Positions 1-36,993 of a DNA stretch of 58,830 nt are shown here, piece by piece. This DNA comes from Patescibacteria group bacterium. GTDB lineage: Bacteria > Patescibacteriota > Patescibacteriia > UBA2591 > JABMQE01. The notes below the pieces were generated by a model. The model had not been told where the DNA came from. It saw only the letters and a program-made list of their open reading frames with translations, and searched no databases. The stretch lies in the NCBI GenBank assembly GCA_018896645.1, contig JAHIMF010000062.1:1-58830 (forward strand), given 5' to 3'. Numbering within the stretch: position 1 is the stretch's first letter; each line of letters starts with the position of its first letter. The translations under genes and the position numbers were made by a program.

Positions 1-17
1 ACCTGGCTCGGGACAGG

Positions 18-70
18 TAAATGATAGATTACAATGTGTCTTTTATCCTTGCTGAAAACCATAAACCAGT
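18..70. repeat. 53-bp direct repeat, orphan copy of the 3' end of the MFS transporter gene (minus strand reads ...TGLWFSARIKDTL-stop)
   Basis: Identical to 2086..2138 except one mismatch (pos 32 c vs pos 2100 t). Similarity stops at 71 and 17. Confidence 0.9.
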
Positions 71-73
71 CAA

Positions 74-96
74 AACCAAAACCTAAATAAAATCAA
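74..96 (-). repeat. 23-nt inter-cassette motif AACCAAAACCTAAATAAAATCAA (copy 1 of 3)
   Basis: Near-identical copies at 683..705 and 1323..1345. The minus strand reads TTGAYTTTATTTAGGTTTTGGTT. Confidence 0.85.
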
Positions 97-115
97 ATTA
101 AAAAATATTGAAAAA

Positions 116-403
116 TTAAAATACAAACAACCTTTTTCTTAATAAATAATCTTTTTTGCTTTTTTCAATAAACAAATCAATCACTTCAATCAATCTCTTG
201 TCAGCTTTGAGAGAATATAAAATTCTCCATCGACTAACTCTTAAACGATAACCATATTCAGTACCAGAGATTTTCTTGACATTACTCTTAGAAAAAGGGT
301 CTTGAGCTAATTTTTCTACTTCTATCACTATCTGTTGTTGGATTTTTCTGTCCAGCTTGCCAAAAATTCTTTCAGCTCTGGGTTTAAAAATAACTTTATA
401 CAT
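116..403 (-). CDS. RelE/ParE-family type II toxin
   Basis: 95 aa. N-terminus MYKVIFKPRAERIFGKLDRKIQQQI and central GYRLRVSRWRILY are typical of the RelE/ParE fold. Starts 11 nt after the antitoxin gene. Confidence 0.75.
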   Translation of the reverse strand: MYKVIFKPRAERIFGKLDRKIQQQIVIEVEKLAQDPFSKSNVKKISGTEYGYRLRVSRWRILYSLKADKRLIEVIDLFIEKSKKDYLLRKRLFVF

Positions 404-413
404 TTTAACATCA

Positions 414-671
414 TTATTTAAGACAATATTTCTTTTTTAATTGAGCCAGAGAAATGCCTTTTTCTCTTTTTGATTCTCTAAAAGCGTCTAAATACCGTCC
501 CTTTTCTTCTAACTCATCCATTAAAGAAAGAAAGACATTATAAGAAGTGTAATCCAAAATTACAGCCACTGGCTCATTCTCACCATATATGACTTGAGGG
601 CTTTTAGTGTTAATAGCTTGGGTTAGAACCTGAGATAAATTTTTTTGTGATGATGTAGCAGTTAATGGCAT
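414..671 (-). CDS. Phd/YefM-family antitoxin
   Basis: 85 aa. The 'SQVLTQAINTKSPQVIYGENEPVAVILDYTSY' N-terminus is Phd/YefM-like. Lies immediately upstream of the RelE-like gene. Confidence 0.7.
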   Translation of the reverse strand: MPLTATSSQKNLSQVLTQAINTKSPQVIYGENEPVAVILDYTSYNVFLSLMDELEEKGRYLDAFRESKREKGISLAQLKKKYCLK

Positions 672-677
672 ATTTTT

Positions 678-705
678 ATTATAACCAAAACCTAAATAAA
701 GTCAA
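678..705 (-). promoter_or_regulatory. sigma70-type promoter, TTGACT-N16-TATAAT, ending 6 nt before the phd ATG (leaderless geometry)
   Basis: Minus strand has TTGACT at 705..700 and TATAAT at 683..678, with the ATG at 671. Overlaps motif copy 2 (683..705). Confidence 0.6.
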
Positions 706-769
706 ATTATATATCCTTCTTAACTATTTTTAGTTTACCTCTTTCAGTAAAAATAGTCAATGTGGATAA

Positions 770-1258
770 CTAAAAACTTATTCTTTCTGGCTTTTTAGAA
801 TAATGTTTATAATGCTCTGGATCTTTCAAGAACTCGGCTGATTTAGTAATATCCTTCTTTTGAAATCCTAAATCAGCCCCAGCCATTAATAGTTCAACAT
901 TGTTAACAAAATCAGAGCTATGAGCAATGATTTTTGGTTGTTCAATCTCTTCTATACTTCTGATTTCTTTAATCAAATTAGCTCCTTTTCTTAACTCTTC
1001 TTGATCTTTTTCTAATTCACCATCAACAAAAACTAAGTCTGGTAGTTTCTCTTTTGATTCTTTTCTTCTTTTAATCTCTTCTAAAGCAGACTGCCCTGTT
1101 TCAAAATGCTTAAAACCATAACCAATGTCTTGGGTCTTCATTTGCCAAAACCTTAAAATTCCTTCTATTGTTTCTTTATCATCATCAATAATCCAGATCT
1201 CTTTGGCAGGAGCTGGCTCTTGTTCTGAATGTTTTTCTAAATTACCTTCAGTAGACAT
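770..1258 (-). CDS. CheY-like receiver-domain protein (stand-alone)
   Basis: 162 aa. IWIIDDD acidic pocket, DLVFVDGEL putative phospho-Asp, AHSS and a later Lys match receiver layout. No output domain. Confidence 0.55.
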   Translation of the reverse strand: MSTEGNLEKHSEQEPAPAKEIWIIDDDKETIEGILRFWQMKTQDIGYGFKHFETGQSALEEIKRRKESKEKLPDLVFVDGELEKDQEELRKGANLIKEIRSIEEIEQPKIIAHSSDFVNNVELLMAGADLGFQKKDITKSAEFLKDPEHYKHYSKKPERISF

Positions 1259-1322
1259 AAGTATTGGGGAAAAGGTTGGAATAAAAATAATTCACTTATT
1301 CTCTTTCTCTATTTTTAGAGAG

Positions 1323-1345
1323 AACCAAAACCTAAATAAAATCAA
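1323..1345 (-). repeat. 23-nt inter-cassette motif (copy 3)
   Basis: AACCAAAACCTAAATAAAATCAA, between the 55-aa ORF stop (1371) and the receiver gene start (1258). Confidence 0.85.
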
Positions 1346-1370
1346 GTTAAATTTTATAATTAAAAACAAA

Positions 1371-1538
1371 TCACCGCGTCTTTACCACCCGGCTGTCTAA
1401 TTGGTATTCTCTTGCCACCTTGCTTGCTTCTTCTCTTATCATCTGAAATAATGCTTTAGGATTTCTCCCAGACTTTCGCCACATTCTATCTCTTATTTTG
1501 TCAAGTTCTTGCTCAATTGGACAAGGAAATTTAAGCAT
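1371..1538 (-). CDS. 55-aa ORF downstream of the PIN gene, possible cognate antitoxin or partner
   Basis: Hand translation gives MLKFPCPIEQELDKIRDRMWRKSGRNPKALFQMIREEASKVAREYQLDSRVVKTR, with ATG at 1538 and TGA at 1373..1371. Below the ORF-track cutoff. Starts 19 nt after the PIN stop. Confidence 0.3.
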   Translation of the reverse strand: MLKFPCPIEQELDKIRDRMWRKSGRNPKALFQMIREEASKVAREYQLDSRVVKTR

Positions 1539-1556
1539 AAGTTATGTTTTTAATTA

Positions 1557-2024
1557 TTAAATTTCTAAAAAATCATTCGGCGTTGAAATGCTAGGAATTG
1601 ACAAACCAAATTTCTCATTAAATTCTATTATTTTCTTTCGCTGTACTGCCCCAACTAAGTGCCGATAATTCCATGAAACAAGGTAGTCAATATTATTAAC
1701 CGTAGCAATTGCTAAATGGATAGCATCTTCCAATTTTGATCCGGGTATTATTTTAAAATTTATGTATTCCTGCGATAAATTTTCTATTTTACTGCTTATT
1801 CCCAATCTCTTCATTCCTCTCACCTTGCTTAAAAGTTTTTCCCTGTTTTGTAAATCTGTAATCTTATTTAGCTCCGCAACTACTAAATCTGAAATTACTA
1901 AATCATAGCATGGAATTATCTCCTTCCAAAAATGAATGGTAATCTCCTTTCGTTCGGCATCTTGCCTTTTAAAGTCAAAATAAGCTGAAATTACTGAAGT
2001 TTCTAAATATATTATCTCTTTCAT
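1557..2024 (-). CDS. PIN-domain (VapC-like) ribonuclease toxin
   Basis: 155 aa. N-terminal 'IYLETSVISAYF' and later acidic residues (DLVVAE, EDAIHLA, VSWNYRHL) follow the PIN pattern. Confidence 0.65.
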   Translation of the reverse strand: MKEIIYLETSVISAYFDFKRQDAERKEITIHFWKEIIPCYDLVISDLVVAELNKITDLQNREKLLSKVRGMKRLGISSKIENLSQEYINFKIIPGSKLEDAIHLAIATVNNIDYLVSWNYRHLVGAVQRKKIIEFNEKFGLSIPSISTPNDFLEI

Positions 2025-2030
2025 GATATA

Positions 2031-2059
2031 AGTATATTAAATTTTTACATAAAAGTCAA
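2031..2059 (-). promoter_or_regulatory. sigma70-type promoter TTGACT-N17-TATACT, 6 nt before the PIN ATG
   Basis: Minus strand has TTGACT at 2059..2054 and TATACT at 2036..2031, with the ATG at 2024. Confidence 0.6.
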
Positions 2060-2085
2060 ATTACAGATGATAAATGGGGAAATGA

Positions 2086-2138
2086 TAAATGATAGATTAT
2101 AATGTGTCTTTTATCCTTGCTGAAAACCATAAACCAGT
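2086..2138. repeat. 53-bp direct repeat, copy attached to the intact MFS gene
   Basis: Matches 18..70. Contains the real stop codon (2097..2099) of ORF 2097..3287. Confidence 0.9.
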
Positions 2139-3287
2139 TAATACTAAAACTCCAGCTAAAACAAAAATATACTGAAATCCAAAAAAATGCAAGACAAGGG
2201 TAGCGAGGAGCGGAGTGATGACATAAGCCAGCGGTCCGGTATTTCGAAAAAGATTAATGATATGAATATCCTTGACATCAACTCTTTTGAAAAAATAAGT
2301 ATCGCGCATAATTTCCACTAAACTGGCGCCAATGCGAGTGCAGACAAGAATAATAAGCCAAACCCAAAAACTCGTGGAATCGGCAAGGCCAAAAACAATA
2401 GCAGAAACGCCCATGATAAAAATACCAATTGTGAGCAGTTCTTTTTCGCCAAGATATTTATCAGCCAGCCAGCCGGCCGGATAGGTAAATAAAACAAATG
2501 TTGAAAGCATAACTGTGAACATAATGCCAACCTGGTGCCACTGGAAGCCAAGATATTTAGTGAGATAAATTGGCGCGTACACGATAAAAGCGCAATAAAA
2601 CGCATGCAAAAGAAAGGCGATTATAAAAATTCCATTTAGCAGATTATTTTTATAAATCTTTTTTATGGCCCTTAAAAAATGGGGTTTAGGAAAATGATTA
2701 ACTTTTAAATCCTTAAACTTTACGTAAAAGCCAATCATCACCAAGAATACTAAAACCGAAGCAATTAAATATAAAAATGAATAATTAAATTTTTTTAAAA
2801 TCTGGCCAGTGGCCAAAGGCGACAAAAACCAAGCAATGTGCAAACCAGTCATATAAGTTCCACGAATGCGGCCAGTGATTTCATCGCGAGAAAAATGTTC
2901 AACATAAATATCAAAGGATATCCAGACTAAATTTAGGAAAACCACATAGGCTAAAAAAGAGATAATAGCCGGGGCAATACTGTTAGATAAACCTAAGCTA
3001 ATTAAACAGACGATCATTGCCAGAAATACCGCGATACTGGCTTTAAAAATCTTCAACCAATTAATGAACTTGGTATAATTCAAAATCATTAAAAATACCA
3101 AGAAATGAGCGACGGTAAAAACAAAGCCGACATTTTTCTCGCCGACAAATTGACTTAGGTAAGATGAATGAACATACGCAGACAAAGCATTGGCAACAGC
3201 TAAAACAAAACCAAAAACAACAAAAAGTTTAAGATGGGATTTTGCTTGTTTTTGGGGTGGTTGATTTTTTGATTGGCTTTTTTGCAC
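2097..3287 (-). CDS. MFS transporter
   Basis: 396 aa with about 12 hydrophobic segments and a central loop, an MFS-like layout. Confidence 0.75.
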   Translation of the reverse strand: MQKSQSKNQPPQKQAKSHLKLFVVFGFVLAVANALSAYVHSSYLSQFVGEKNVGFVFTVAHFLVFLMILNYTKFINWLKIFKASIAVFLAMIVCLISLGLSNSIAPAIISFLAYVVFLNLVWISFDIYVEHFSRDEITGRIRGTYMTGLHIAWFLSPLATGQILKKFNYSFLYLIASVLVFLVMIGFYVKFKDLKVNHFPKPHFLRAIKKIYKNNLLNGIFIIAFLLHAFYCAFIVYAPIYLTKYLGFQWHQVGIMFTVMLSTFVLFTYPAGWLADKYLGEKELLTIGIFIMGVSAIVFGLADSTSFWVWLIILVCTRIGASLVEIMRDTYFFKRVDVKDIHIINLFRNTGPLAYVITPLLATLVLHFFGFQYIFVLAGVLVLTGLWFSARIKDTL

Positions 3288-3388
3288 GAGTTAGTAAATA
3301 GTAACTGGAAATTAGTAATTAGGGAATTGGAATATTTGAGTTTATGTTTTTAAAAGTGGAAATTTGTGTAATCGTGTGCACGAATATG

Positions 3389-3646
3389 CTACTTGCGTTT
3401 TCGCCTGAAAAACAACGTAGATATTGGAAAAGACAATATAAAACAACTTGGTGTTGTCCATAAAAGATGAAATTTAGAAATCTGTGGATTAGCTAAAAAA
3501 ATGATATTCATTACCCATAAAAGGACCACATCAATGATTAAGGTTTTATGACCTCGGCTAAAATTTTTATATCTAAACCAATTTATCGTCCATAGTAAAG
3601 TAATAATTATTGATAATATTTGTAATATTGTGCTGATTGTTTTCAT
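3389..3646 (-). CDS. small membrane protein, hypothetical
   Basis: 85 aa with three hydrophobic segments and no recognisable family. Confidence 0.4.
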   Translation of the reverse strand: MKTISTILQILSIIITLLWTINWFRYKNFSRGHKTLIIDVVLLWVMNIIFLANPQISKFHLLWTTPSCFILSFPISTLFFRRKRK

Positions 3647-3675
3647 GAAATTTCATAAAAAATAAAAATAATTCG

Positions 3676-4896
3676 TTATTCTATCACTCCCCCGCCGAGA
3701 ACTTCATTCTTAGAATAAAAAACAACTGACTGGCCAGGGGTTATTGCGCGTTGGGATTTTTTGAATTTCACAAAAATTTTGTGTTGTTTTGTGATATTTT
3801 TGGTTAAAACAGCCTCAACCGCTGGGTGCAGGTACCGAATCCTCGCTCGACACTTCAGTGGAAACTTTGGTTCAAACCCTGAAATCCAGTTGATATTCTT
3901 GGCTGTGAGCTGATCTTTAAATAAGAGTTCCTGATCAAATTTATTAGCCACATACAAAATATTCTTCTGATAATCTAATTTTACCACATAAAACGGGCCA
4001 ATGCCACCGATAAGAATTTCCCGGCGCTGGCCGATTGTGTATAATGGCAGGCCTTGATGCTCGCCGATGACTGAACCGGGTTTAATCCCCTTCTCTTTGA
4101 CACCGTCGAGGGTGATGATGGGACCGGGTTTGAGTTTGAGATGACGGCGGAGGAAATCATAATGCCGTTTATCTTTAATAAAACAAATGCCTTGAGATTC
4201 GGCCTTCTCGAACACTGGCAATTTTTTCTTTTTAGCGACTTTGCGGACTTGGGGTTTGGTGTAATCACCGATTGGAAATAAACAATGTTTGAGTTGGGCT
4301 TGGGATAAGGTCCAAAGGAAGTATGATTGGTCTTTGGCTTTATCGTTAGCCATTCGTAACTGGTAACTGGTAACTAGTAACTTAGTTTGTTTTTTTGCTT
4401 TCTTGTTTTTTTGCTTTCTTGTTTTTTTGACGTAATGACCAGTGGCAATATAATCACAGTCAAGCCTTTTAGCGCGTTTTAAAAACTCACCAAACTTGAC
4501 ATATTTGTTGCATTCAACGCAAGGATTAGGAGTGCGACCGCGAGAGTATTCGTCTAAAAAATTATCAACCACGCGTTTCTTGAAAATTGATTTCATATTC
4601 ATGGTGTAGAGTTTGATATTGAGCTTGTCGGCAACGCGCCGGGCATCTTCATAGGCCTCGATAGAGCAACATTTGTTTTCGGGTAAGATAGATTGGGTCA
4701 AGGGACCCAATCTACCCCCAAGCTGGGTGGGTCGGATCCCTTGACCCGACCCGGTTAAACTCTCTGACCAGAATTTCATAAAAATACCGATGACCTCATA
4801 ACCCTGTTCCAATAACAAAGCAGCGGCGACTGAAGAATCAACGCCGCCGGACATGGCTACAAGAACCTTTGGCTTATTTTTATTCATAATAATCAA
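3676..4896 (-). CDS. mnmA: tRNA 2-thiouridine(34) synthase MnmA, carrying two in-frame insertions
   Basis: SGGVDSS PP-loop, TPNPCVECN, ATGHY, KDQSYFL and GICFI motifs. The likely start is MNKNK at 4887. Confidence 0.92.
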   Translation of the reverse strand: MIIMNKNKPKVLVAMSGGVDSSVAAALLLEQGYEVIGIFMKFWSESLTGSGQGIRPTQLGGRLGPLTQSILPENKCCSIEAYEDARRVADKLNIKLYTMNMKSIFKKRVVDNFLDEYSRGRTPNPCVECNKYVKFGEFLKRAKRLDCDYIATGHYVKKTRKQKNKKAKKQTKLLVTSYQLRMANDKAKDQSYFLWTLSQAQLKHCLFPIGDYTKPQVRKVAKKKKLPVFEKAESQGICFIKDKRHYDFLRRHLKLKPGPIITLDGVKEKGIKPGSVIGEHQGLPLYTIGQRREILIGGIGPFYVVKLDYQKNILYVANKFDQELLFKDQLTAKNINWISGFEPKFPLKCRARIRYLHPAVEAVLTKNITKQHKIFVKFKKSQRAITPGQSVVFYSKNEVLGGGVIE

Positions 4897-5107
4897 AATC
4901 GATTTTAATTGATGAGTGATCTTCTAAAATGTAGTTACGGGCTGAAGAAAATTGATAATCTTCTGGGCGCTCGCATAAACCGGCTTTGGTTGGATTGTTG
5001 TGTATATAGTTTAATTTTTCATCAAACTTGTGCGGAGTTAAAACATTGAAATCGTAAAATTTAGGTTGCCAGATACGATATTTGAGACCACGCCGGTGTG
5101 CCCTCAC
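4880..5107 (-). pseudogene. C-terminal remnant of a REP-associated tyrosine transposase (RAYT / IS200-like Y1 family)
   Basis: 'WQPKFYDFNVL...KLNYIHNNPTKAGLCERPEDYQFSSARNY' matches the RAYT C-terminus. The N-terminal HUH/Tyr part is missing because uppP ends at 5181. A 9-bp GC hairpin (GGGTTGAGC/GCTCAACCC, about 5118..5139) lies next to it. Confidence 0.55.
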
Positions 5108-5180
5108 CTGTTGGGTGGGGTTGAGCCTCTGCTCAACCCGTTGGGGCGCGAGCTGAGGCTCTTGTCTACCCGTGATGAAT

Positions 5181-5978
5181 CTACAACAAAATCAAAATCG
5201 CTGCTCCCAACAAAATCCGATAAACCGCAAACAATTTAAATCCAAATCGTTTTATAAATGCTAATAACAATTTAATCGCTATAAAACCGCTAATAGCAGC
5301 AGCCGCAAAACCCACTAACAAGCTCTTTGCTTCTTCTATAACAATCCCTTCTCGCAATAAATTAAACAACTCATAGCCGGCGGCAGCGGCAATAATCGGA
5401 ATAGAAATCAAAAAGGAAAACTCCACAGCTGTTTTTCGATCCATCTTAGTCAGCATGCCAAAGCTCATAGTAACCCCACTGCGCGAAGTTCCGGGAATAA
5501 GAGCTAACGCCTGACTTAACGCCACTGTAATTGTTTGAAAAATTCCAACAGAATTAACATTTTTGGTTTTAAAATGAGCTCGCTTGCTGTAACTGTCTGC
5601 CAGCCATAAAACTAAACCCCAAAAGATCAAATTGGCAGCTACCACAATATTGGAACGGAAATTATTTTCAACCAAATCCTTGAATAAAAAACCAGCCAAT
5701 CCGGCTGGAATAATAGATAAAATAATCAAAGCTCCAAGGCGAGCATTAGCTTCCTGTCCCCTGCCCCTGCCAAAAACACCCTTGAATATATCTCTCAACT
5801 TTTTACGAAACGCAAACAAAACCGCGACTAATGTTCCCAGGTGAACAATTACATCAAAATCCAAACCCTGGTCACGAATACCTAAAATCTTGGGCACTAA
5901 AATCAAATGCCCAGAGCTGGAAATTGGCAAGAACTCTGTTAATCCTTGGATAATGCCGAGAATGATGGGATGGGACAT
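5181..5978 (-). CDS. uppP: undecaprenyl-diphosphate phosphatase
   Basis: 265 aa. 'GIIQGLTEFLPISSSGHL' and 'PGTSRSG' are BacA/UppP signatures. Confidence 0.92.
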   Translation of the reverse strand: MSHPIILGIIQGLTEFLPISSSGHLILVPKILGIRDQGLDFDVIVHLGTLVAVLFAFRKKLRDIFKGVFGRGRGQEANARLGALIILSIIPAGLAGFLFKDLVENNFRSNIVVAANLIFWGLVLWLADSYSKRAHFKTKNVNSVGIFQTITVALSQALALIPGTSRSGVTMSFGMLTKMDRKTAVEFSFLISIPIIAAAAGYELFNLLREGIVIEEAKSLLVGFAAAAISGFIAIKLLLAFIKRFGFKLFAVYRILLGAAILILL

Positions 5979-6077
5979 ACGTTAAAAATAAAAATTTACT
6001 ATTCATTATTTACTATTTACTATTCACCAATCAAACAACTTCCAAACTTCATTAGGTAAAAATAAAAAGAATAGTAT

Positions 6078-6128
6078 CAGCCAGAGGCTGACCCCTCCAA
6101 AGGCGGGCAGGCACCCTTTGGCTGGAAT
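6078..6128. repeat. GC-rich REP-like palindrome, family 1 (...CCAAAGGCGGGCAGGCACCCTTTGGCTGGAAT)
   Basis: Hairpin CCAAAGG/CCTTTGG ending in GGCTGGAAT. Related copies at 24429, 25450, 42988, 51837 and 55624. Confidence 0.8.
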
Positions 6129-6159
6129 AATAAATAGTAAATAATAAATCACCCAAGTC

Positions 6160-7848
6160 TCACCTATCATTCTGATCATCGTTTTTATTTTTCTTTTTCC
6201 CGTCAAAGGCCACGGTTCCCTGACTCATAGCGTCTTTTAAAGAAACTTCTTCGGGTACTTTTTTAGTTACCGGCTCGGGGCCGGCACTGGGTTGTGGCTG
6301 GGCGGAACCTGATGGTCGTCTGGGCGCTCTAGCCGGTTTAACTTCTCCGCTTCTTACCTTTTGCAAACACTCCCGGCAATAAACTGGCCGGGCTGGGTCC
6401 GGCTTAAAGGGTAAATCCGTCTTTTCACCACAATGAGAGCAAGTAGCTTCAAATTTAGGTGAGGTATCTCTACCCGCCGACCCGGTTGGACGAAATCCTA
6501 CTTTTTTTCCGGCCCCTCCGCCATCCCCTTCACCAACGCCATTTTCCCGGCCCTCGTCCATCATTCCGCTCCAGCGATTTATTTTTTCCTCAACCTCTTT
6601 TCGGGGTTCAGCATAGCGTTCACGCGAAATTTTAATTATTTTTTCACGATTTCCTTCTTGGATGTCTGCGGCCAGAGGCGGCAGGGTACCGGCAGAAAAA
6701 GGAGCCGAAGACACGCCATCAATCATCAACTTCATATAAACATCAAATTTGGCTAAATTTACCAAATCTGTTTCAGTAAATTCTGGCTCAAACTCTTTGA
6801 CTACCGCTTCGGCATCAGCTGCACCAATCCGAAAACACATAATAGTTCCCACATTACCAAATACCGCTGCTTGAACTGTCTCGTCTAATTGCTCAATATA
6901 CTGATGCGCAATAATAAGATCAAGGCGATATTTTCGGGCTTCGGATAAAATATTAGCAAATGACTCGGTGGCAAAATTTTGGAACTCGTCAACATACAAG
7001 TAAAAATCTTTGCGCTCTTCTTCTGGTATATCAACTCGGCTCATAGCCGCCAATTGAACCTTGGTAATCATAATCGCGCCTAATAATGCCGAAGAATCTT
7101 CGCCGACACGGCCTTTTGCTAAATTCATAATAAATATCTTCTTGGTATCCATTATCTCGCGCATATCTAATTTTGATTTCACCTGGCCAACAATATTTCT
7201 AATCAAAAAAGTTGATAAAAATTGGCCAACCTTATTTTGAATTGGAGCGATTGCTTCGGATTGAAACCTATCCGGGTATTTTGAATATTCATCAACCCAA
7301 AAAGATCGGACCACCGGATCAGTAACTTTACTGATTACTTTTTTCCGATATGCCTTATCAACTAACAGTCTCATAATCCCCAGCAAAGAACTGCCGGGAT
7401 ATTCTAAAAGAGCTAAAATAGCATTCCGTAAAACATATTCCAAACGCGGACCCCAAGAATCTGCCCAAATCTTTTTAAAGACTCCCACCAAACCCGAGGA
7501 AACTAAGTGGCGATGGCTAGCGTCAACTTGTTCCAAAACATTAAAGGCAACAGGAAAGTCTAAGTCCGCCGGATTAAAATAAACCACATCATTAACCCTG
7601 TTTGATGGAATGTAATCAAGAATTTTATCCGCAATATCGCCATGGGGATCAACTAGAGCCACCCCATTACCCGCCCGAATATCCTGAATAATCATATTTT
7701 CAATAACTGTTGTTTTTCCCATACCGGTTTTACCAATCAAATACATATGCCGGCGACGGTCATCTTCTTTGATACCAAATTTCACCCGTCGATTGCGGAA
7801 ATTGGTTTCGGCTAAAAGAGTTAAGTTTTGATCGTTATCTGTGGGCAT
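6160..7848 (-). CDS. VirD4/TraG-TraD-like coupling ATPase (DUF87-type P-loop) with C-terminal CxxC...CxxC zinc ribbon
   Basis: Walker A GKTGMGKTT and Walker B 'FYLYVDEFQNF'. C-terminus CSHCGEKTDLPFKPDPARPVYCRECLQ. The start is probably MPTDND at 7848 rather than 7896. Confidence 0.7.
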   Translation of the reverse strand: MPTDNDQNLTLLAETNFRNRRVKFGIKEDDRRRHMYLIGKTGMGKTTVIENMIIQDIRAGNGVALVDPHGDIADKILDYIPSNRVNDVVYFNPADLDFPVAFNVLEQVDASHRHLVSSGLVGVFKKIWADSWGPRLEYVLRNAILALLEYPGSSLLGIMRLLVDKAYRKKVISKVTDPVVRSFWVDEYSKYPDRFQSEAIAPIQNKVGQFLSTFLIRNIVGQVKSKLDMREIMDTKKIFIMNLAKGRVGEDSSALLGAIMITKVQLAAMSRVDIPEEERKDFYLYVDEFQNFATESFANILSEARKYRLDLIIAHQYIEQLDETVQAAVFGNVGTIMCFRIGAADAEAVVKEFEPEFTETDLVNLAKFDVYMKLMIDGVSSAPFSAGTLPPLAADIQEGNREKIIKISRERYAEPRKEVEEKINRWSGMMDEGRENGVGEGDGGGAGKKVGFRPTGSAGRDTSPKFEATCSHCGEKTDLPFKPDPARPVYCRECLQKVRSGEVKPARAPRRPSGSAQPQPSAGPEPVTKKVPEEVSLKDAMSQGTVAFDGKKKNKNDDQNDR

Positions 7849-7867
7849 ATAAAATATTTTTAAAAAA

Positions 7868-8005
7868 TCAACCAAGCTGTTGCAATAGTAAGGCAATCGT
7901 TGCCGCTGCCGTTACAAAAATGGAAATAACCGCCACTACTACATTAACCAGCACTAAAGTCATTGAAATATCAAATCTTTTCTTTTTGAAAAATGGAAAT
8001 TTCAT
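7868..8005 (-). CDS. 45-aa single-pass membrane mini-ORF upstream of the ATPase
   Basis: Hand translation gives MKFPFFKKKRFDISMTLVLVNVVVAVISIFVTAAATIALLLQQLG. Sits between the membrane protein gene and the ATPase gene. Confidence 0.3.
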   Translation of the reverse strand: MKFPFFKKKRFDISMTLVLVNVVVAVISIFVTAAATIALLLQQLG

Positions 8006-8143
8006 AAATATTAAAAAAACTAGAAATAAAGCCATTCGACAAACTCAGGCCAGGAAAATTAAGAAATAAAGGGTCGAGTGTTAAATTTGAAAATTGTTAT
8101 CCTTAATTTCTTAGTTTCTTTATTTCTCCTCGCCTTCCAGTTA

Positions 8144-9547
8144 TTAAAATTCCTCAACTTCCGCTTCTGATACCTCCTCACCCCTCTCACCTTCTATAGC
8201 CTCTGTCTCTTGTCTGGGCGCTTGTTCAACTGGTAAAGCAAAAGGCGGTTCCATGCGCTTGGCTTCGGTTTTCTTGAGCAAAGGAGTTCTGATGTCCATC
8301 ATTGGAAAATGCCAAAGAGTTGCCAACTCCTCAATATTCAAAACAAAGCGCGCCCGACCCCGCCAATTACTTCGATATTTATAAGCTAAAACCAATCTCC
8401 GTTGCCTGGCCGCAACCCGACGTTTTATAAAAAAATAATCAATTGTCGTCTTGCTTTTGGGGTGAGGCTTAAATCCGTTTAAATCAAGACTGTTAAATTG
8501 AGCAATGGATCCTAATATCCCATTGACGCCGCGAGGCTTGGAAAAAATATCTCTAGGTCCCCAGTACATAAATCGAAATTTAGTATCAAAACCATGTTTA
8601 GAAATCTTTGCTTCAACAGCCTCTACTGCTGTCCGCTCACCAGGAGATAAATAAAGCATTTGTGAACGCAACGCTTGTTGCTTTCGAGCCACTTCCGTCT
8701 CACTAGTCTTGAAAGAAGCTGTGGCCGTATCAAAAGCGCCCTTAGCCAATTTCTGGCCGGCTTGACCCAATTTGGCAAAGTAAGTGCTAGCCCCATCTGT
8801 TTCTGGCACTTGGGCTCCTATTAATTTTCTAACCAGCCGTACCCCACCCTTAATCCAATCAGGCAGAATGGGTGTAATAACCAGCTGAAGCCAAATGTGC
8901 TCCGTAGGACTGATATTGCTCATAATTTCCAAAAGGGACGCCATGGGGTCTTTAAATTCTTGCGTTAAGCCGTACTCAAAAAACGGATAAGTTCTAATGG
9001 GGTAATGATCCTTGTTATAGGTAACAAATTCCGTGCCCCAAAGATTATACGTTTTATTGGGGTATGCCGTTGGCACGGCCCCGGCATAGTCTTCTACTTC
9101 CGTAATTTCAGCATCCGGATATTGAGCATAAATTGCGGCTTCCACCAAATTCCTAAACAGGGTTGGGGAATGAACTAAAAACTGTAAATACCCGCCATCA
9201 CTAATAATCTCAAAACTGAATTTTGGCGTTAAAAAACCCTGCCAGTACTTTTCCACTAAATTTGGCGTTTTATAACTCCCATAAATTTGGGCAAAAAGAT
9301 TTTCTACGGCTTTCGGGCCTTGCTCATTCTCTTTGGGGACATCCACCGCCAAAAGCACATATTTCTGCTTGCTATAATAAATATTCTGCCGCCAATAAAG
9401 CCAGGCTTCTTTTAAGCCCCAAAGTAAAACAATCAGAAGCAGGACCCAACCGCCGTTTTTTATCAAAAACCAAACACCTTCCCAAGCATTATCAAAACTG
9501 CTTAGTTGGGTCAGGAAACTTGAGATTGAATTCATGACGTTGACCAT
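8144..9547 (-). CDS. membrane-anchored hypothetical protein, upstream partner of the VirD4-like ATPase
   Basis: The long ORF has an N-terminal TM (WVLLLIVLLWGL). The start at MVNVMN (9547) is preferred because 9548..9652 is a GC-rich repeat. Confidence 0.55.
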   Translation of the reverse strand: MVNVMNSISSFLTQLSSFDNAWEGVWFLIKNGGWVLLLIVLLWGLKEAWLYWRQNIYYSKQKYVLLAVDVPKENEQGPKAVENLFAQIYGSYKTPNLVEKYWQGFLTPKFSFEIISDGGYLQFLVHSPTLFRNLVEAAIYAQYPDAEITEVEDYAGAVPTAYPNKTYNLWGTEFVTYNKDHYPIRTYPFFEYGLTQEFKDPMASLLEIMSNISPTEHIWLQLVITPILPDWIKGGVRLVRKLIGAQVPETDGASTYFAKLGQAGQKLAKGAFDTATASFKTSETEVARKQQALRSQMLYLSPGERTAVEAVEAKISKHGFDTKFRFMYWGPRDIFSKPRGVNGILGSIAQFNSLDLNGFKPHPKSKTTIDYFFIKRRVAARQRRLVLAYKYRSNWRGRARFVLNIEELATLWHFPMMDIRTPLLKKTEAKRMEPPFALPVEQAPRQETEAIEGERGEEVSEAEVEEF

Positions 9548-9587
9548 GTTTTTATTATAACAAAAAAATGAATACAATGCCAATCTA

Positions 9588-9650
9588 CCTCTCGGCCATC
9601 CCTCGACTCCGAGGTCGCTCAGACTCGAGGAAAGCTCGAGGCTGAATGGC
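9588..9650. repeat. GC-rich repeat, family 2 (CCTCTCGGCCAT...CTCGAGGCTGAATGGC)
   Basis: Homologous copies at 19405..19495 and 41780..41809, plus a partial inverted copy at 8031..8054. Confidence 0.75.
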
Positions 9651-9788
9651 AAATGAATGTTTACCCCAATAACGACCGGGGCAGGTCTACAAATGTGCGA
9701 ATACCAAAAAAGCTCCAGACTTTAGTATCCTGAAGCTTCTTGGTTGAAAATATAAAAAATGAAAATATGGATATGTGGATATATTTAC

Positions 9789-10949
9789 TTATTCCAAATC
9801 AACCACATTATATCGTCCATCATCCAATCTCTTAAACTTACTCTTGTCCGAAAGCGCCAAAAGCACGGTGCCGGGTTTCACCATCCGTTGCTTTAGCACC
9901 TCATCAATTATTTCTTCGCGAGCTAAAGGCCCTTTCTTTTTTATAATACCAACAATAACATCAGGCACTATTCCGGGAATATAGCCCCAGTTTTTTAGAG
10001 CGTACACACCCCGGCCAACTAGGATATACTTATCACCCATAATTAACTCATTATGGACAGTAGCCGGGTTAGCGGTTTTGGAGTCAAAACCCTGCTTATT
10101 AATTGCCTCGGCAATCTCGTTAAAATGCAATGGCTTGCCAGTTTTTTCCAGCACTAAATAAATCTTATCGCTCATTCTTTTGGGAACAATGGTTCGCCAA
10201 TCAATCAAACCCCATTCGCCAAAAGAATTTCTCTTGGTTTTAGCGCTGGCTTCCAGGGCTGACAAAATTATTTTATCGGTTGCCTCATAATCTTTATCAT
10301 GAGAATAATCTTTAAAACCAGCCACCAAATTCTCTGCTAAGGTTGGTTTGCCTTGGTTTTCGATAAAGCTATGCAACTCATCTAAAATTTTTCTAAAAAG
10401 CTCAACATCGGCAATCTTTAATTTCCAGCCCGGCATAAAATATTCATCTGCCCTTACCTTTTCTAAATTTTTATCTAAAAGCTTGGAAATAATAAAAAGG
10501 AGGGCTTGTTTTCCAAAATTGGAAACCGATTCATCTTCACTTATCTCTAAAAGTTTGTTTACTAAAAAGTCTTCCTGCATAATCCCGCCATGGAATTCTA
10601 AAGTATCAAAAACAACAGCCTCAAACGGACTCACTAAATCTTTAAACTTGCCGTCTTGTTTGATCTTCTTGATCGCTCTGCTTTCTATCTGCCGGATTCT
10701 TTCGCGAGTAACTTTATAAAACTTACCAATCGCTTCTAGAGTTTGCTTTTTTATTTCCTCGGCTTCATACAAGGCATAGCGGCGTTTAAGAATCTCAACT
10801 TCTTGTTTGCTTAAGACAGCAAAAAGCCCCGCAATTAATTCTTGAGGTTGAATTTGCCCTTTTCTCTCGGCTTGCTGTTCTCGAAGCACCTCATCAAGCA
10901 GGGAATCGGTTTTTTGATTTTTCGATTGGTTGTCATTGTCATTCATCAT
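9789..10949 (-). CDS. sigma-70 region-4-like HTH protein with C-terminal HARE-HTH/winged-helix modules
   Basis: 'LSKQEVEILKRRYAL...TLEAIGKFYKVTRERIRQIESRAIKKIK' is region 4. 'KIYLVLEKTGKPLHFNEIAEAI...VHNEL...ILVGRGVYALKNW' is HARE-HTH-like. Confidence 0.6.
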   Translation of the reverse strand: MMNDNDNQSKNQKTDSLLDEVLREQQAERKGQIQPQELIAGLFAVLSKQEVEILKRRYALYEAEEIKKQTLEAIGKFYKVTRERIRQIESRAIKKIKQDGKFKDLVSPFEAVVFDTLEFHGGIMQEDFLVNKLLEISEDESVSNFGKQALLFIISKLLDKNLEKVRADEYFMPGWKLKIADVELFRKILDELHSFIENQGKPTLAENLVAGFKDYSHDKDYEATDKIILSALEASAKTKRNSFGEWGLIDWRTIVPKRMSDKIYLVLEKTGKPLHFNEIAEAINKQGFDSKTANPATVHNELIMGDKYILVGRGVYALKNWGYIPGIVPDVIVGIIKKKGPLAREEIIDEVLKQRMVKPGTVLLALSDKSKFKRLDDGRYNVVDLE

Positions 10950-11270
10950 ATATTTAATCTTTCTTGCATGAGAACAAAAGAAACTAAGAAATAAAGAAAC
11001 TAAGAAATAAAGGGCTAAATGTCAAATTTTATAAAATTATTATCCTTTATTTCTGTATTACTTTATTACTTTATTTCCCTGAATTTTTCTAACAACTATT
11101 TTCATGCTGACTTTATCTAATATTAGCTAAAAATAAGGCAATCCCTTATTACACAAAATAAGTATAACATAAACCAAAAAATATGTCAACGAAAAAAAAT
11201 TTATTCCAAAAATTTTTATCAAAAAAACAGCCCTATTAGAGAACTGCTTCTATACTCCTTAACTTTATCA

Positions 11271-11525
11271 TTATTTCAAAATCCTTAGCCGCCTCAAATT
11301 CCACTCTGTCCATTTCGCTTGCCTGGCAATCATACTTTTTAAGGTCTTTATCTTAAAAGTATCGCCCAAAGCATGAAACGAAACTGTCACTCTTCGCCCA
11401 TCTGGATGATAATAGCGCTGATGACTGCCTTTTTGCAAGTGAAGATAAAATCCATCTTTAATCAAAGCCCTAATTATCTCTCAAACAGTTACGGAATGAA
11501 GTTTTGAATAATCAATTCCTTTCAT
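11271..11525 (-). pseudogene. hicA: HicA-family toxin interrupted by an in-frame TGA at codon 15
   Basis: The ATG at 11525 overlaps the hicB stop (ATGA). Translation reads MKGIDYSKLHSVTV-TGA(11483..11481)-EIIRALIKDGFYLHLQKGSHQRYYHP..., and the KGSH motif is HicA-like. Confidence 0.65.
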
Positions 11526-20236: not shown

Positions 20237-20815
20237 TTAACCACGTTTAATCTTTATATCATACAGCATCTCCTCAAGCCTTCGTAAATTTCGCTTCGCG
20301 TCGTCAAACTTAGAACGCAAATGCCCGTTATTCAGATTTAATTTAATCAGTTCGCCGATAATCTCTTCTACTGTATCCCGATATTTTTCAACTTCCCTAA
20401 ACTTTCGTTTTGTCGCTTGATTAACGGCCTTACGGACAAGCTCGCCGGTAAGATCGCAAATTGCGCATAAATAACTCTCGTAGTTTAATTCCTCTTCTTC
20501 CAAAAAATCAATTTTTTTGCCGGCAAGAACATTATAAAAAAACTTGGCCTCCGCGTATTCTTCAAGCGCGGCCCGAAAAGCCCCTTCGCGGCGAAGCGAG
20601 GCATCGCGTTTAAAATAGGTCTGGAAATTCGCAAAAATATTTTCAACATCCTTAATCAATTTCCCGGCAATTTTCATGTCATCGCGATGCATTGAAAAAA
20701 TCGCCTGCTTGCTTAGACGCAAAGCATCGCTGGAATCCTTAATAATTTGATGCCGCTTTGAGCTGTAGTTGATGTAATCGGCTAAAAGTTGTTGGAAAAG
20801 TTTTTTATTGATCAT
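20237..20815 (-). CDS. translin/TRAX-family protein
   Basis: 'ESYLCAICDLTGELVRKAVN' and 'NLNNGHLRSKFDDAKRNLRRLEEMLYDIKIKRG' parallel eukaryotic translin 'DYLSGVLILASELSRL' and 'NLKNDSLRKRYDGLKYDVKKVEEVVYDLSIRG'. Confidence 0.7.
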   Translation of the reverse strand: MINKKLFQQLLADYINYSSKRHQIIKDSSDALRLSKQAIFSMHRDDMKIAGKLIKDVENIFANFQTYFKRDASLRREGAFRAALEEYAEAKFFYNVLAGKKIDFLEEEELNYESYLCAICDLTGELVRKAVNQATKRKFREVEKYRDTVEEIIGELIKLNLNNGHLRSKFDDAKRNLRRLEEMLYDIKIKRG

Positions 20816-20857: not shown

Positions 20858-21520
20858 TTAAATTAACGTCTTAGCATATTTAAGTAAATTGATATTGCTG
20901 CGATAATCCATGCGCATGGGGCCAATAATCCCAATCATTTTGTTTTTGCTTTTAGTAATCACTAAACCACAATCAGCGCCAAAAGGATTGTCGGACCCGA
21001 TCCTCACTTCCACGTCATTCCCCACTTCGTTGTAGATTTGGGAAACAACCTCATCAAGATGGTCAATGACCGAACTAAAATTATAAACCAAATCATACTT
21101 ATGAAACTCTGGCTGGGAAAAAACATTGGAAATGCCAGTGTAGTAAACATCGTCTTTGCTAAAACCAACCACTACCGCTTCTTTGGAAATTTCTGCAATT
21201 CTTTTGGCGATGTCTTTCAGATTGCTCATATTCTTAAATCCTGGGACTTCTGTTATTTTACCACTTTTAATAAGATTTTCTAAGTAAAATTTATAGCCAG
21301 CTTCAGTGGGCACCCGGCCGGCAGAAATGTGAGGCTGAACAATTAAACCCTGCTTTTCCATCTCTGCCATTTCGTTACGAATAGTAGCAGATGAAATGTC
21401 ATTAAAATGCTTGTCAACCAATAAACTCGACCCCACTGGCCCAGCGGTCCTGATATGCTCTTCTATGATGTATTTTAATAGCTTATTTTGTCTGTTCTGC
21501 ATGTTCTTAGTATAAACCAT
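20858..21520 (-). CDS. hrcA: heat-inducible transcription repressor HrcA (short form, 220 aa)
   Basis: N-terminal wHTH 'IIEEHIRTAGPVGSSLLV...SSATIRNEMAEMEKQGLI.QPHISAGRVPT'. A CIRCE lies immediately upstream. Confidence 0.88.
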   Translation of the reverse strand: MVYTKNMQNRQNKLLKYIIEEHIRTAGPVGSSLLVDKHFNDISSATIRNEMAEMEKQGLIVQPHISAGRVPTEAGYKFYLENLIKSGKITEVPGFKNMSNLKDIAKRIAEISKEAVVVGFSKDDVYYTGISNVFSQPEFHKYDLVYNFSSVIDHLDEVVSQIYNEVGNDVEVRIGSDNPFGADCGLVITKSKNKMIGIIGPMRMDYRSNINLLKYAKTLI

Positions 21521-36099: not shown

Positions 36100-36466
36100 T
36101 TTGCCATGATAAGACGGTAGCCTACTCTTGCGTGAAGTAAAAAAGGAGTTATCCTGGAATATATCTCTACAGAAAAGAGATGAAACCCGAAGGAAAATGG
36201 CTATTAGTCTCGGGTGTTTTTTCATGGCTAACCTAGCAAGGCGGTGGTCTTTCCACTGTAACAAGTGCGCGAAGGGTTAAACATGGCTAATGTGGTCTGG
36301 CTGCGGCCGCGGTCAGATTATGTAGACAGCCGATGTTTCAATTCGTGCCAAGCAGTGCAGTGGCTTACCAGGACCCCTTATCCTCTGGTGCGCCGATTAC
36401 CTTTCAGGGGAGGATGAGCGGGCGATGCCAAGACCGAATATCCTGGCGCCTTGCGGGCCTTTCATT
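36100..36466 (+). ncRNA. unclassified GC-rich structured non-coding region downstream of the tRNAs
   Basis: No credible ORF. Hairpin plus T-run at 36185..36222. ATGGCTA occurs three times (36197, 36224, 36283). 12-bp helix 36374..36385 with 36410..36422, extended by 36368..36373 with 36441..36446. Ends at a strong terminator. Confidence 0.3.
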
Positions 36467-36512
36467 AAGGCATGACTTTAATCAAAACAAGAAGTCATGC
36501 CTTTTTCTTTTC
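36467..36512 (+). terminator. rho-independent terminator (11-bp stem AAGGCATGACT/AGTCATGCCTT plus T-run)
   Basis: Read directly. Convergent with the tsaB terminator at 36527..36555 (minus strand CAGTTTGTGT/ACACAGCTG plus TTTTTTT). Confidence 0.75.
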
Positions 36513-36573
36513 TCTAAACAAAAAAACAGCTGTGTAAAACACAAACTGCTTCCCTATTTACTCTTTTACTTGT

Positions 36574-36993
36574 TTACTTGGTTAACCACTTACTTCCAGT
36601 TATATTCGGTTCCCTCCCATAAAACGGTTCAACCGTCTCCCCTACCCTTGTCTTCTTTAATCTCAACTTACCCATTTTAATCAGGCCCTGCAAATCCTCA
36701 AACTCGCTCAACTTTACCCCAACAACTGGAATTTGTAAAGCATAACTTAAAGTATTAGCCACTACCACGCCCACCCGCACAGATGAAAAACCACCAGGAC
36801 CTTTCACAACCACTACCCCCTGCAAATCAGTGAGTTTAACTTTATTCTTCTTTAATAATTTATCAACAGTTGACAATAACTTTTCTGATTCCTTGTATTG
36901 AACCCTAACAACAGTCTTATCTAAAATAAAATCATCGCGGGTAATCGCGATAACTAACTTATTTGATTCAGCTGTGTTAATTACTAAAATCAT
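36574..36993 (-). CDS. tsaB: tRNA threonylcarbamoyladenosine biosynthesis protein TsaB (short form)
   Basis: 'MILVINTA...' and 'VVVVKGPGGFSSVRVGVVVANTLSYALQIPVVGV'. Confidence 0.7.
   Translation of the reverse strand: MILVINTAESNKLVIAITRDDFILDKTVVRVQYKESEKLLSTVDKLLKKNKVKLTDLQGVVVVKGPGGFSSVRVGVVVANTLSYALQIPVVGVKLSEFEDLQGLIKMGKLRLKKTRVGETVEPFYGREPNITGSKWLTK

Follow-up and report, generated by a model that had tools for sequence, protein, structure and literature searches.

In the genome of an ultra-small bacterium of Candidatus Falkowbacteria (CPR), a 2-kb islet of three small modules lies behind an MFS transporter gene, in the neighbourhood mnmA–MFS…alaS. It was analysed at the end of a window of 58,830 nucleotides (contig C43, positions 1–58,830), whose position 1 is the end of the contig. 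The modules are a PIN-domain gene with a 55-aa ORF, a gene for a stand-alone receiver-domain protein, and a Phd-family antitoxin gene with a ParE/RelE-family toxin gene. All five genes are on the minus strand, and the far end of the islet is a spare copy of the last 14 MFS codons, stop codon included. The features are the following.

1–17, no strand: fragment of a dispersed GC-rich repeat (CTCGGGACAGGTAA family) at the contig end; its 12–15-mers recur
18–70, minus: tail2, the orphan MFS end (last 13 codons, stop codon and 11 nt downstream), from the repeat match
74–100, minus: junction motif copy A (TAATTTGATTTTATTTAGGTTTTGGTT), between the ParE/RelE stop codon and the orphan tail, with no gene after it
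116–403, minus: gene of a ParE/RelE-family toxin, 95 aa (PF05016, 26.9 bits, cut-off 23)
414–671, minus: gene of a Phd/YefM-family antitoxin, 85 aa (PF02604, 34 bits, cut-off 29.8)
678–709, minus: junction motif copy B (683–709), also the phd promoter (promoter match 11/12)
770–1258, minus: gene of a stand-alone receiver-domain-like protein, 162 aa (PF00072, 26.4 bits, below the cut-off of 30.2)
1323–1349, minus: junction motif copy C (TAACTTGATTTTATTTAGGTTTTGGTT), 3′ of the 55-aa ORF, without a usable −10 box
1371–1538, minus: 55-aa ORF, putative PIN partner (antitoxin); no family match, constant company of the PIN gene
1557–2024, minus: gene of a PIN-domain protein, 155 aa, putative VapC-like RNase toxin (PF01850, 25.9 bits, cut-off 23.6)
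2031–2063, minus: PIN promoter, including the 12-nt box TAATTTGACTTT at 2052–2063 (promoter match 10/12)
2064–2096, minus: native spacer of 33 nt, 3′ of the MFS stop codon; also found after the orphan tail on contig C51
2086–2138, minus: tail1, the right repeat copy and functional MFS 3′ end, from the repeat match
2097–3287, minus: MFS transporter gene, 396 aa, the sole MFS gene of its type in the genome

The Phd–ParE/RelE module has the predicted gene layout of a type II toxin–antitoxin (TA) pair. The phd gene lies directly upstream of the ParE/RelE gene with a gap of 10 nt, both products score above their family cut-offs, and RelE homologues of 64–91% identity are always paired with Phd; TA activity itself is a prediction from family membership alone. 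The PIN protein likewise exceeds its cut-off and is always co-inherited with the 55-aa ORF, which lies downstream of it (the VapBC antitoxin is usually upstream). The ORF, which matched no family, also adjoins PIN on two related contigs, L025 and L021, with identities of 98% and 84%, and is a putative antitoxin partner of PIN. A 20-nt inverted repeat around it (1349–1368 and 1545–1564) was rejected as an RNA stem or MITE end because L025 differs there by changes that do not compensate one another. The third product misses the PF00072 gathering score (see above), and acidic-pocket-like motifs, IIDDD and FVDGE, were noticed in it by eye only.

Neither RelE nor PIN was found on viral contigs. PIN relatives in GTDB species genomes reached at most 44% identity and all came from other phyla, and no close RelE relative was present among 401 genomes of the class. 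Exact-protein searches returned no matches for RelE and Phd, nor for the RelE′ and GNAT proteins encoded on C51. Rfam gave no matches in 1–3400, a PADLOC search gave none, and a literature search for Falkowbacteria with toxin–antitoxin systems found no paper.

That the modules are independently promoted, as had been proposed from a sequence-only reading of the locus, is borne out by near-consensus promoters for phd and PIN. The phd promoter (TTGACT, 16 nt, TATAAT) is the best match in the region at 11/12, and the PIN promoter (TTGACT, 17 nt, TATACT) matches at 10/12. In both, 6 nt separate the −10 box from the ATG, a leaderless-type geometry. The phd promoter, with the junction motif as −35 box and spacer, is kept in the related contigs L020, L021 and L024.

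The islet is bracketed by two copies of the MFS 3′ end. Positions 18–70 and 2086–2138, described in the sequence-only reading as near-identical 53-bp repeats one base apart, indeed match at 52 of 53 positions, and the lone mismatch (31 against 2099) is silent because TTG and TTA, its two forms of the last leucine codon, both encode Leu. The same reading took the right copy for the true MFS 3′ end and stop codon and the left copy for an orphan. This holds: upstream of tail2 on the gene strand lies the ParE/RelE gene, with no MFS body. It also named an outcome that would overturn it, a left repeat that is the end of a second full-length MFS paralogue; this source was ruled out, since the genome contains a single MFS match.

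Differences between tail2 and tail1 are silent in 1/1, 2/2 and 7/7 instances, 10/10 in total, against an expected silent share of only ~21% for random single-base changes, and every tail2 retains the peptide of its own lineage. The orphan tails are not decaying like pseudogenes. The MFS 3′ end is a recombination mosaic: its last ~95 nt are 96–97% identical to L024 (lineage Z), against ~75% for the remaining gene.

The modules are separated by a motif of 23 nt, AACCAAAACCTAAATAAARTCAA, whose three reported copies were recovered at 74–96, 683–705 and 1323–1345 (chance expectation 0.01). The full conserved junction is longer, at 27 nt (TAAYTTGAYTTTATTTAGGTTTTGGTT; 74–100, 683–709 and 1323–1349). 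The −35 box of the following module lies within its first 12 nt, TAAYTTGAYTTT. A partial copy that had been placed at 2051–2063 does share these 12 nt, but what lies there is the PIN promoter's −35 region. Every copy of the motif has the same, direct orientation, and the three in the genome are identical over 18 nt whereas the copies in relatives differ. After GGTT, three continuations occur: phd, the receiver gene, or tail2 in two allelic forms. The 3′ end of the motif resembles the MFS codons for VLV.

A search of the genome for other copies, which the sequence-only reading had suggested, added only a fourth, on contig C51, again followed by an orphan tail; beyond the window and C51, the 1.33-Mb genome had none at ≤3 mismatches except one poor match. 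The motif was absent from 60 related genomes and from the genome contig collection, and the scans of metagenome and viral contigs each gave one chance match inside an ORF (L014 and L081, respectively). The motif is a genuine part of the phd promoter, but the concern that it might be a generic promoter sequence was ruled out because it is unique to this locus within the genome. Folding the three junctions as single-stranded DNA on both strands gave −1.7 to −7.8 kcal/mol (z −1.3 to +0.4), with no stem that includes the motif, and no dyad symmetry was found; attC and dif sites were ruled out on these grounds.

The suggestion that the array may continue left of the window failed, since on C51, L022 and L025 the orphan tail is its end. 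Bases 1–17 contain the same 12–15-mers, in the same context, as C68, C74, C81 and C20, and none of the other contigs of the assembly overlaps the left end of C43 there. The terminus of C51 has a 99-nt exact overlap with C43 392–490, and this contig carries RelE′, the motif, tail2′, the 33-nt spacer, GNAT, a TA pair and the genome's only alaS. A leftward extension in search of a recombinase, also proposed earlier, thus arrived at GNAT, the TA pair and alaS in the C51 flank, with no integrase. The two haplotypes, X (C51) and Y (C43 1–391), match at 84% through base 391 and completely (100%) from base 392; both are present within one assembly, whose graph branches at this place. An IS256-family transposase, part of a multi-copy IS, lies 4.6 kb off on C51. 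The sister genus has mnmA–MFS–(other, unrelated small ORFs)–alaS and lacks both the modules and the motif; MFS…alaS is the ancestral synteny.

Related contigs, several of them short (1–3.6 kb), carry different module sets between the same boundaries.

L025: MFS–tail1–(PIN–55aa)–motif–tail2
L024 and L022 (one sample): MFS–tail1–(Phd–RelE)–motif–tail2–alaS
Present genome: all three modules between tail1 and motif–tail2
L020: MFS–(Phd–RelE), without tail2
L021 (another locus): (Phd–RelE)(PIN–55aa)–motif

L024 and L022 do not overlap and are taken as one genome by assumption, as they come from the same sample. The module order of L021 is a circular permutation of that in the present genome. The motif–tail2 junction recurs on C51, L022 and L025 at a position constant across lineages, and a motif copy follows the 55-aa ORF at the same position in L021 and L025. 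Since related genomes hold other module subsets at the same boundaries, the locus is a swappable cassette array and not a one-off scar, and the first proposal of a cassette-like array is upheld.

The PIN–55aa module has been exchanged horizontally between lineages. At the nucleotide level, PIN matches its L025 counterpart at 93% and the 55-aa ORF at 95%, against 71% for the adjacent MFS genes, and the fractions of identical codons are 0.88 and 0.85 in the module against 0.52 in MFS. Identity rises abruptly at AATTTGACTTT, the 12-nt box, and stops at …GGTTTTGGTT, the 3′ edge of the motif. With an identity tract that ends exactly at the motif, and with the related contigs above, the claim that the motif marks the module junctions stands.

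No integrase or transposase had been seen between the repeats, and indeed the five ORFs include no recombinase gene. None was found adjoining the islet, nor in L022, L024 and L025, and no integrase lies between the two tails in any of six loci. PF00589 matched a single gene of the genome, which is Xer-like (321 aa) and adjoins an FtsQ-like gene on C21; the genome also has one large serine recombinase, on C90, and neither is on the islet contig. With no linked recombinase, no hairpin or dyad, and modules that bring their own promoters, the earlier proposal of attL/attR integration by an integrase, or of an integron, is not upheld.

The anatomy, the variable content at fixed boundaries, the PIN–55aa exchange, the mosaic MFS end and the silent-only divergence of the tails are direct observations; from them we infer a recombination route, and toxin–antitoxin function in the modules and circular intermediates, if there are any, are likewise presumed. 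We consider it probable, though far from settled, that the islet is a flexible one that has no integrase of its own and passes between lineages through recombination at the MFS tails and the junction motif. Islet-bearing DNA would also have carried a functional MFS 3′ end (tail1), which keeps the transporter whole. The resident tail (tail2) would have been displaced and would now stand, orphaned, at the islet's far boundary. The two tail copies may then act as portable homology arms for installation of the islet in a naive genome and for its loss. Each module terminates at the 27-nt junction, whose first 12 nt give the next module its −35 box, and this motif of 12–27 nt would serve the gain, loss and reordering of modules. 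The most likely catalyst is host homologous or short-homology recombination after DNA uptake; the main alternative is a recombinase acting from elsewhere in the genome. As 12–27 nt is short for RecA-type recombination, a dedicated recombinase could instead lie behind the sharp edges of the modules.

Such a recombinase is central to the best-surviving rival, a dedicated site-specific cassette system akin to integrons or dif modules, in which the 27-nt site is cut after TTGAYTTT or GGTT by an enzyme encoded elsewhere, for example the Xer-like one, and modules move as small circles. We regard this as a serious minority possibility. The identical GGTT breakpoint with its three or four right-hand partners, the 5′ boundary at the 12-nt box and the circularly permuted order in L021 are what it would produce, and the genome has one tyrosine and one serine recombinase elsewhere. 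Two contigs from another sample, L011 and L012, the latter derived from SRR11548473, share 99.9% identity with the window and break off at base 698, after TAATTTGACTTT, inside motif B; this break counts towards the preferred islet reading as well. A tandem CTTGATTTT/CTTGACTTT at the L025 junction looks like a footprint. The uniformity of the genome's three motif copies over 18 nt, although relatives' copies differ, points the same way. Against this, the site has neither dyad symmetry nor hairpin (fold z −1.3 to +0.4), its copies are all in direct orientation, the islet has no recombinase linked to it, the motif is absent elsewhere in the genome and in the searched collections, and its service as the phd promoter gives it a plain other function.

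Less probable, and in our judgement improbable, is a single old illegitimate insertion of a three-module block into the MFS 3′ end through GTTTT.G.T microhomology, followed by decay, with the differences between lineages being deletions between repeated promoter sequences and mobility now over. The variants can indeed be derived from an old three-module array by inter-motif deletions, which counts against our preferred exchange by recombination: L025 and L024/L022 are each one motif or box-repeat deletion away from it. The constant position of the motif–tail2 junction in all lineages and the likeness of the motif 3′ end to the VLV codons also fit. Such deletions, however, fail to explain the 93–95% identity of PIN–55aa across hosts whose MFS genes are 71% identical, or the permuted order of L021. 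The mosaic MFS 3′ end, orphan tails that differ silently only and follow the peptide of their own lineage, 16%-different haplotypes in one assembly, and module and MFS trees that already appear to disagree also speak against it.

A remnant of a classical integrative element (attL/attR), its integrase lost or beyond the contig end, is very unlikely: direct repeats of a gene 3′ end around accessory DNA, with the gene intact, are the classic geometry, but the flank past the orphan tail on C51, L022 and L025 holds housekeeping and other genes and no integrase, arrays of one to three modules all lack one, and the transposase on C51 is 4.6 kb away and belongs to the multi-copy IS256-family element. 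An assembly artefact, a mis-join or collapsed repeat at a contig end, can practically be dismissed: the left copy is 17 nt from the end and the graph branches there, but the RelE–motif–tail2 junction was assembled independently on C51 and L022, and after the 55-aa ORF on L025, in different samples and by different assemblers.

Parts of this architecture are familiar. Phage 21 and e14 at icd in E. coli, and islands at tRNA genes, target a gene 3′ end and carry a replacement end. As in these elements, direct repeats of the target end bracket the insert, MFS is intact and the displaced orphan end sits at the far boundary; unlike them, the islet is 2 kb long, has no integrase within it, consists of exchangeable modules and has an orphan tail with silent-only divergence. 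The rhs and cdiA loci have orphan C-terminal modules downstream, and the displaced end can act as a homology patch. There too an imported 3′ end with cargo displaces the resident end, which persists downstream, but the tails of the islet encode the same peptide with no toxin-domain swap, and the cargo is independent TA-type modules. Integron arrays and CALINs (attC clusters without an integrase) hold small, strain-variable cassettes, the chromosomal ones commonly TA genes. The islet resembles them in its site-bound small cassettes, variable content and junction at a fixed point of a repeated site; it differs in having no IntI with attI and no attC hairpins, in modules that are not promoterless, and in its anchor in a gene 3′ end.

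The dif (pdif) modules of Acinetobacter plasmids are small, often of TA type and without their own recombinase; ~28-nt conserved sites lie between them, dyad-symmetric for XerC/XerD and of alternating orientation, and content and order are shuffled among replicons (PMC13141974, PMC6449649, PMC6160057). The islet shares the small TA-type modules without a recombinase, the conserved separators of about that length and the shuffling, and its host has one putative Xer-like gene. In contrast, its sites are chromosomal direct repeats without the inverted 11-nt arms, 6-nt centre and alternating orientation of dif sites, and they double as −35 box and spacer.

The same geometry, a duplicated gene end or terminator around inserted genes, occurs on C42, C5, C79 and C21 of this genome, so that at least five small inserts are bracketed in this way. 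The greA–lysS islet (C21), which contains a paralogue of the receiver gene with 80% identity, and those on C42, C5 and C79 are also integrase-free; they are single inserts without an internal junction motif, whereas the MFS islet is a multi-module array with a series of related loci. It is the most informative of them: the related loci show addition, removal and reordering of modules at one 27-nt junction, one module was transferred between lineages 29% diverged in the neighbouring gene, and the orphan gene tail is free of pseudogene-like decay.

CPR bacteria (Patescibacteria) have tiny genomes with few classical mobile-element genes. More speculatively, and with considerable doubt, the locus may represent a cassette system of Falkowbacteria, perhaps of the wider CPR, that joins a promoter-embedded 27-nt recombination junction to reversible installation and removal of the array via duplicated host-gene tails, which alternate as the real gene end. 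If so, each captured module would arrive with, or gain, a −35 box, and the alternation would explain purifying selection on the orphan tail. Organisms in which classical mobile-element genes are very scarce would then have a route of cassette capture that needs no integron integrase. The mechanism, once worked out, would explain how accessory genes, among them TA and perhaps defence modules, are passed around in uncultured episymbionts. Should it amount to no more than homologous exchange between short repeats, the locus would still be a clear if fairly ordinary flexible islet.

Every gene between positions 1 and 3287 of the window lies on the minus strand, and the ~2-kb islet of three modules (PIN-55aa, a receiver-like gene and Phd-ParE/RelE) sits 3' of an MFS transporter gene. 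The 53-nt direct repeat proposed in the sequence-only reading is genuine, with a single mismatch between 18–70 and 2086–2138: TTG versus TTA in the last leucine codon. The right copy (tail1) is, as had been claimed, the terminus of the genome's sole MFS gene of its type. The left copy (tail2) is preceded on the gene strand by the ParE/RelE gene and is therefore the orphan tail it was taken for.

All differences between tail2 and tail1 are silent: one of one in this genome, two of two in L024/L022 and seven of seven in L025 (contigs from relatives), the last including a change of TAA to TGA. Only ~21% of random single-base changes are expected to be silent (p = 1e-7 to 4e-4, depending on assumptions). 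The tail2 peptide is its own lineage's version, TGLWFSARIKDTL in this genome and GGLWFSVRMKDTL in L025. Judged from these sequences, an orphan tail without decay is at odds with an old, inert scar. Provided that imported DNA crosses over within the tail, the silent-only divergence fits two functional alleles, with tail1 coming from a donor and tail2 being the end that the recipient already had. It also fits a reversible excision of the islet via the tails, with either copy able to act as the gene end.

The motif at the module junctions occurs three times in the window, as claimed, compared with 0.01 expected. Its length, previously given as 23 nt, had to be revised: the conserved junction spans 27 nt (copies A, 74–100; B, 683–709; C, 1323–1349) and reads TAAYTTGAYTTTATTTAGGTTTTGGTT on the gene strand. 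The only other copy lies on contig C51 of the same assembly. No further copies turned up when all 1.33 Mb of the assembly were searched under looser criteria, none was found in 60 relatives, and public metagenome, genome and viral collections yielded two matches, both chance and both within ORFs. A −35 box (TTGAYT) sits in the first 12 nt of the motif. The phd promoter (705–678) and the PIN promoter (2059–2031) have near-consensus geometry, with a −10 box 6 nt from the ATG, and are the top two promoter matches of the region; the phd version is kept in L020, L021 and L024. Because copy C lacks a usable −10 box and no gene follows copy A, the motif is not simply a working promoter. It shows neither a hairpin nor dyad symmetry and has no Rfam match. 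Its final 9 nt (GTTTTGGTT) look like the MFS codons that specify VLV or ILV (GTTTTAGTA, ATTTTGGTC), a microhomology that may have determined where the original join formed.

Position 1 of the window is the end of a contig (C43:1), and bases 1–17 are part of a dispersed GC-rich repeat, which probably halted the assembly at this point. Contig C51 (L013; 5,987 nt) terminates in a 99-nt exact overlap with C43 392–490, forming a graph branch, and upstream of this overlap it is 84% identical to C43 17–391. For the distal end of the islet, the assembly contains two haplotypes: X is on C51, and Y is C43 1–391. On the gene strand, C51 carries Phd, RelE' (its own RelE), the motif, a diverged MFS tail, a 33-nt native MFS downstream spacer, a GNAT gene, a second TA pair, alaS (one copy in the MAG), two further genes and an IS256-family transposase. 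The array, which had been thought possibly to continue leftward, ends at the orphan tail, since the flank beyond it can be read on C51. In the sister genus the order is mnmA-MFS-(~780 nt of unrelated small ORFs)-alaS; together with the C51 flank, this shows that MFS...alaS is the ancestral neighbourhood and that the islet occupies a variable spot within it.

Five informative contigs (the L020–L025 series), all short, were obtained by looking up RelE and MFS homologues by exact protein; L024 and L022 come from the same sample, do not overlap and were assumed to represent one genome.

Gene order at related loci (gene strand; MFS amino acid identity to that of the window)
L025, 72%: MFS-tail1-11 nt-CAATTTGACTTT-PIN-55aa-motif-TAAG-tail2-other flank
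L024 and L022, 79%: mnmA-MFS-tail1-8 nt-motif-Phd... and ...Phd-RelE-motif-TTGA-tail2-alaS
L020, 81%: MFS-100 nt-motif-Phd-RelE, without tail2
L021, another locus (not MFS): M10 peptidase-repeat element-motif-Phd-RelE-AATTTGACTT-PIN-55aa-motif-...
L023, away from the MFS locus: secY-Phd-RelE-adk, with similarity beginning only at ...GTTATAAT

The series indicates that the same two boundaries, the MFS tail plus a short spacer and the motif plus the orphan tail, hold one, one or three modules depending on the lineage. The same modules also occur at other genomic places in relatives (e.g. L021, L023), and the order in L021 is that of this genome, circularly permuted.

Comparison with L025 shows that the PIN-55aa module was transferred between the two lineages. 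Nucleotide identity is 93% for PIN and 95% for the 55-aa ORF, compared with 71% for the adjoining MFS genes, and the share of conserved residues encoded by an identical codon is 0.88 and 0.85 in the module versus 0.52 in MFS. In the alignment, identity climbs from ~0.7 to 0.9–1.0 exactly at AATTTGACTTT and stops at ...GGTTTTGGTT, past which lie the receiver gene in this genome and tail2 in L025. Phd-RelE follows the same trend more weakly (88–92% identity where MFS has 78–79%). Against L024 the MFS gene is ~75% identical, but its final ~95 nt reach 96–97%: the 3' end is a mosaic, and the functional gene end itself has been exchanged. A single breakpoint joins several partners: GGTT is followed by ATAAT-phd, CTCTC-receiver gene, TTGA-tail2 or TAAG-tail2. 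Two contigs from another sample, L011 (NCBI MAG contig JAHIPQ010000085.1) and L012 (Logan contig of SRR11548473), match window 698–11319 at 99.9% identity, and both terminate at base 698, directly past TAATTTGACTTT in motif copy B; this shared end suggests that the population may branch at the motif B junction.

The most economical reading is a flexible islet without an integrase of its own, whose module functions are putative, assigned from family matches. It would spread and turn over via short conserved sequences, with the duplicated MFS tail serving as homology arms and the 12–27-nt junction motif between modules as a second exchange sequence; the likeliest engine would be host recombination following DNA uptake. 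The main rival is that a recombinase encoded elsewhere in the genome acts on the motif; the genome encodes a single Xer-like tyrosine recombinase, on C21, and a single serine recombinase of 553 aa, on C90, and no recombinase was found within the islet. The earlier attL/attR or integron-type interpretation is not supported. At least one defining test goes against each of four readings: a classical integrase element (none of the islet genes is a recombinase), an integron (the junction lacks a hairpin), a dif module (the motif lacks dyad symmetry) and an assembly artefact.

The geometry of the MFS locus recurs at four other places in this genome. One is C42:20370–21678, where 52-nt exact copies of the 3' end of a 152-aa membrane-protein gene surround a prepilin-like gene (20954–21454). 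The last ~17 codons, at 20763–20814, recur at 21459–21510 directly past the insert, and the second copy terminates in ...GVINFVL* versus ...GVITISN* in the first. At C5:2616–4585, the 5' end of a MiaB/RimO-like gene is duplicated over 83 nt (89%), forming an orphan N-terminal fragment of 55 aa, and an AAA ATPase gene separates the copies; exact 58-nt direct repeats bracket another AAA ATPase gene at C79:439–1858. Between greA and lysS (C21:36220–38193), the greA terminator hairpin is duplicated exactly over 36 nt, and the copies bracket a receiver-gene paralogue (80%; 36312–36788) and a 336-aa gene, and the similarity to the window's receiver module reaches into the 3' flank (TTATCCAYATTGACT...AAAAATAGTTA).

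Past the orphan tail, C51:12–5233 encodes a GNAT acetyltransferase, a TA pair (73 aa and an 89-aa RelE/YoeB-like protein), alaS, an ATP-binding and STAS-like gene pair and the IS256-family transposase, the end of which is repeated on C31 and C2. In the sister genus (L018; G001:C123), the MFS-alaS gap at 1560–2335 holds three GC-rich, Cys-rich small ORFs (61–65 aa), not TA modules: different cargo in the same variable spot. The L025 junction past the 55-aa ORF (3275–3300) carries a 9-nt tandem, CTTGATTTT/CTTGACTTT, which is missing from copy C; it could have arisen by slippage or be the footprint of a recombination event. In the window, the 55-aa ORF lies between the arms of a 20-nt inverted repeat (1349–1368 and 1545–1564; 95% complementary); an RNA stem here is doubtful, because the L025 changes are not compensatory. 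Two more PIN paralogues of the same subfamily (43–44% identity) lie at C82:1575–2024 and C6:2723–3178, and among GTDB species genomes the closest relatives of PIN belong to Bacteroidota and Poribacteria (≤44% identity).
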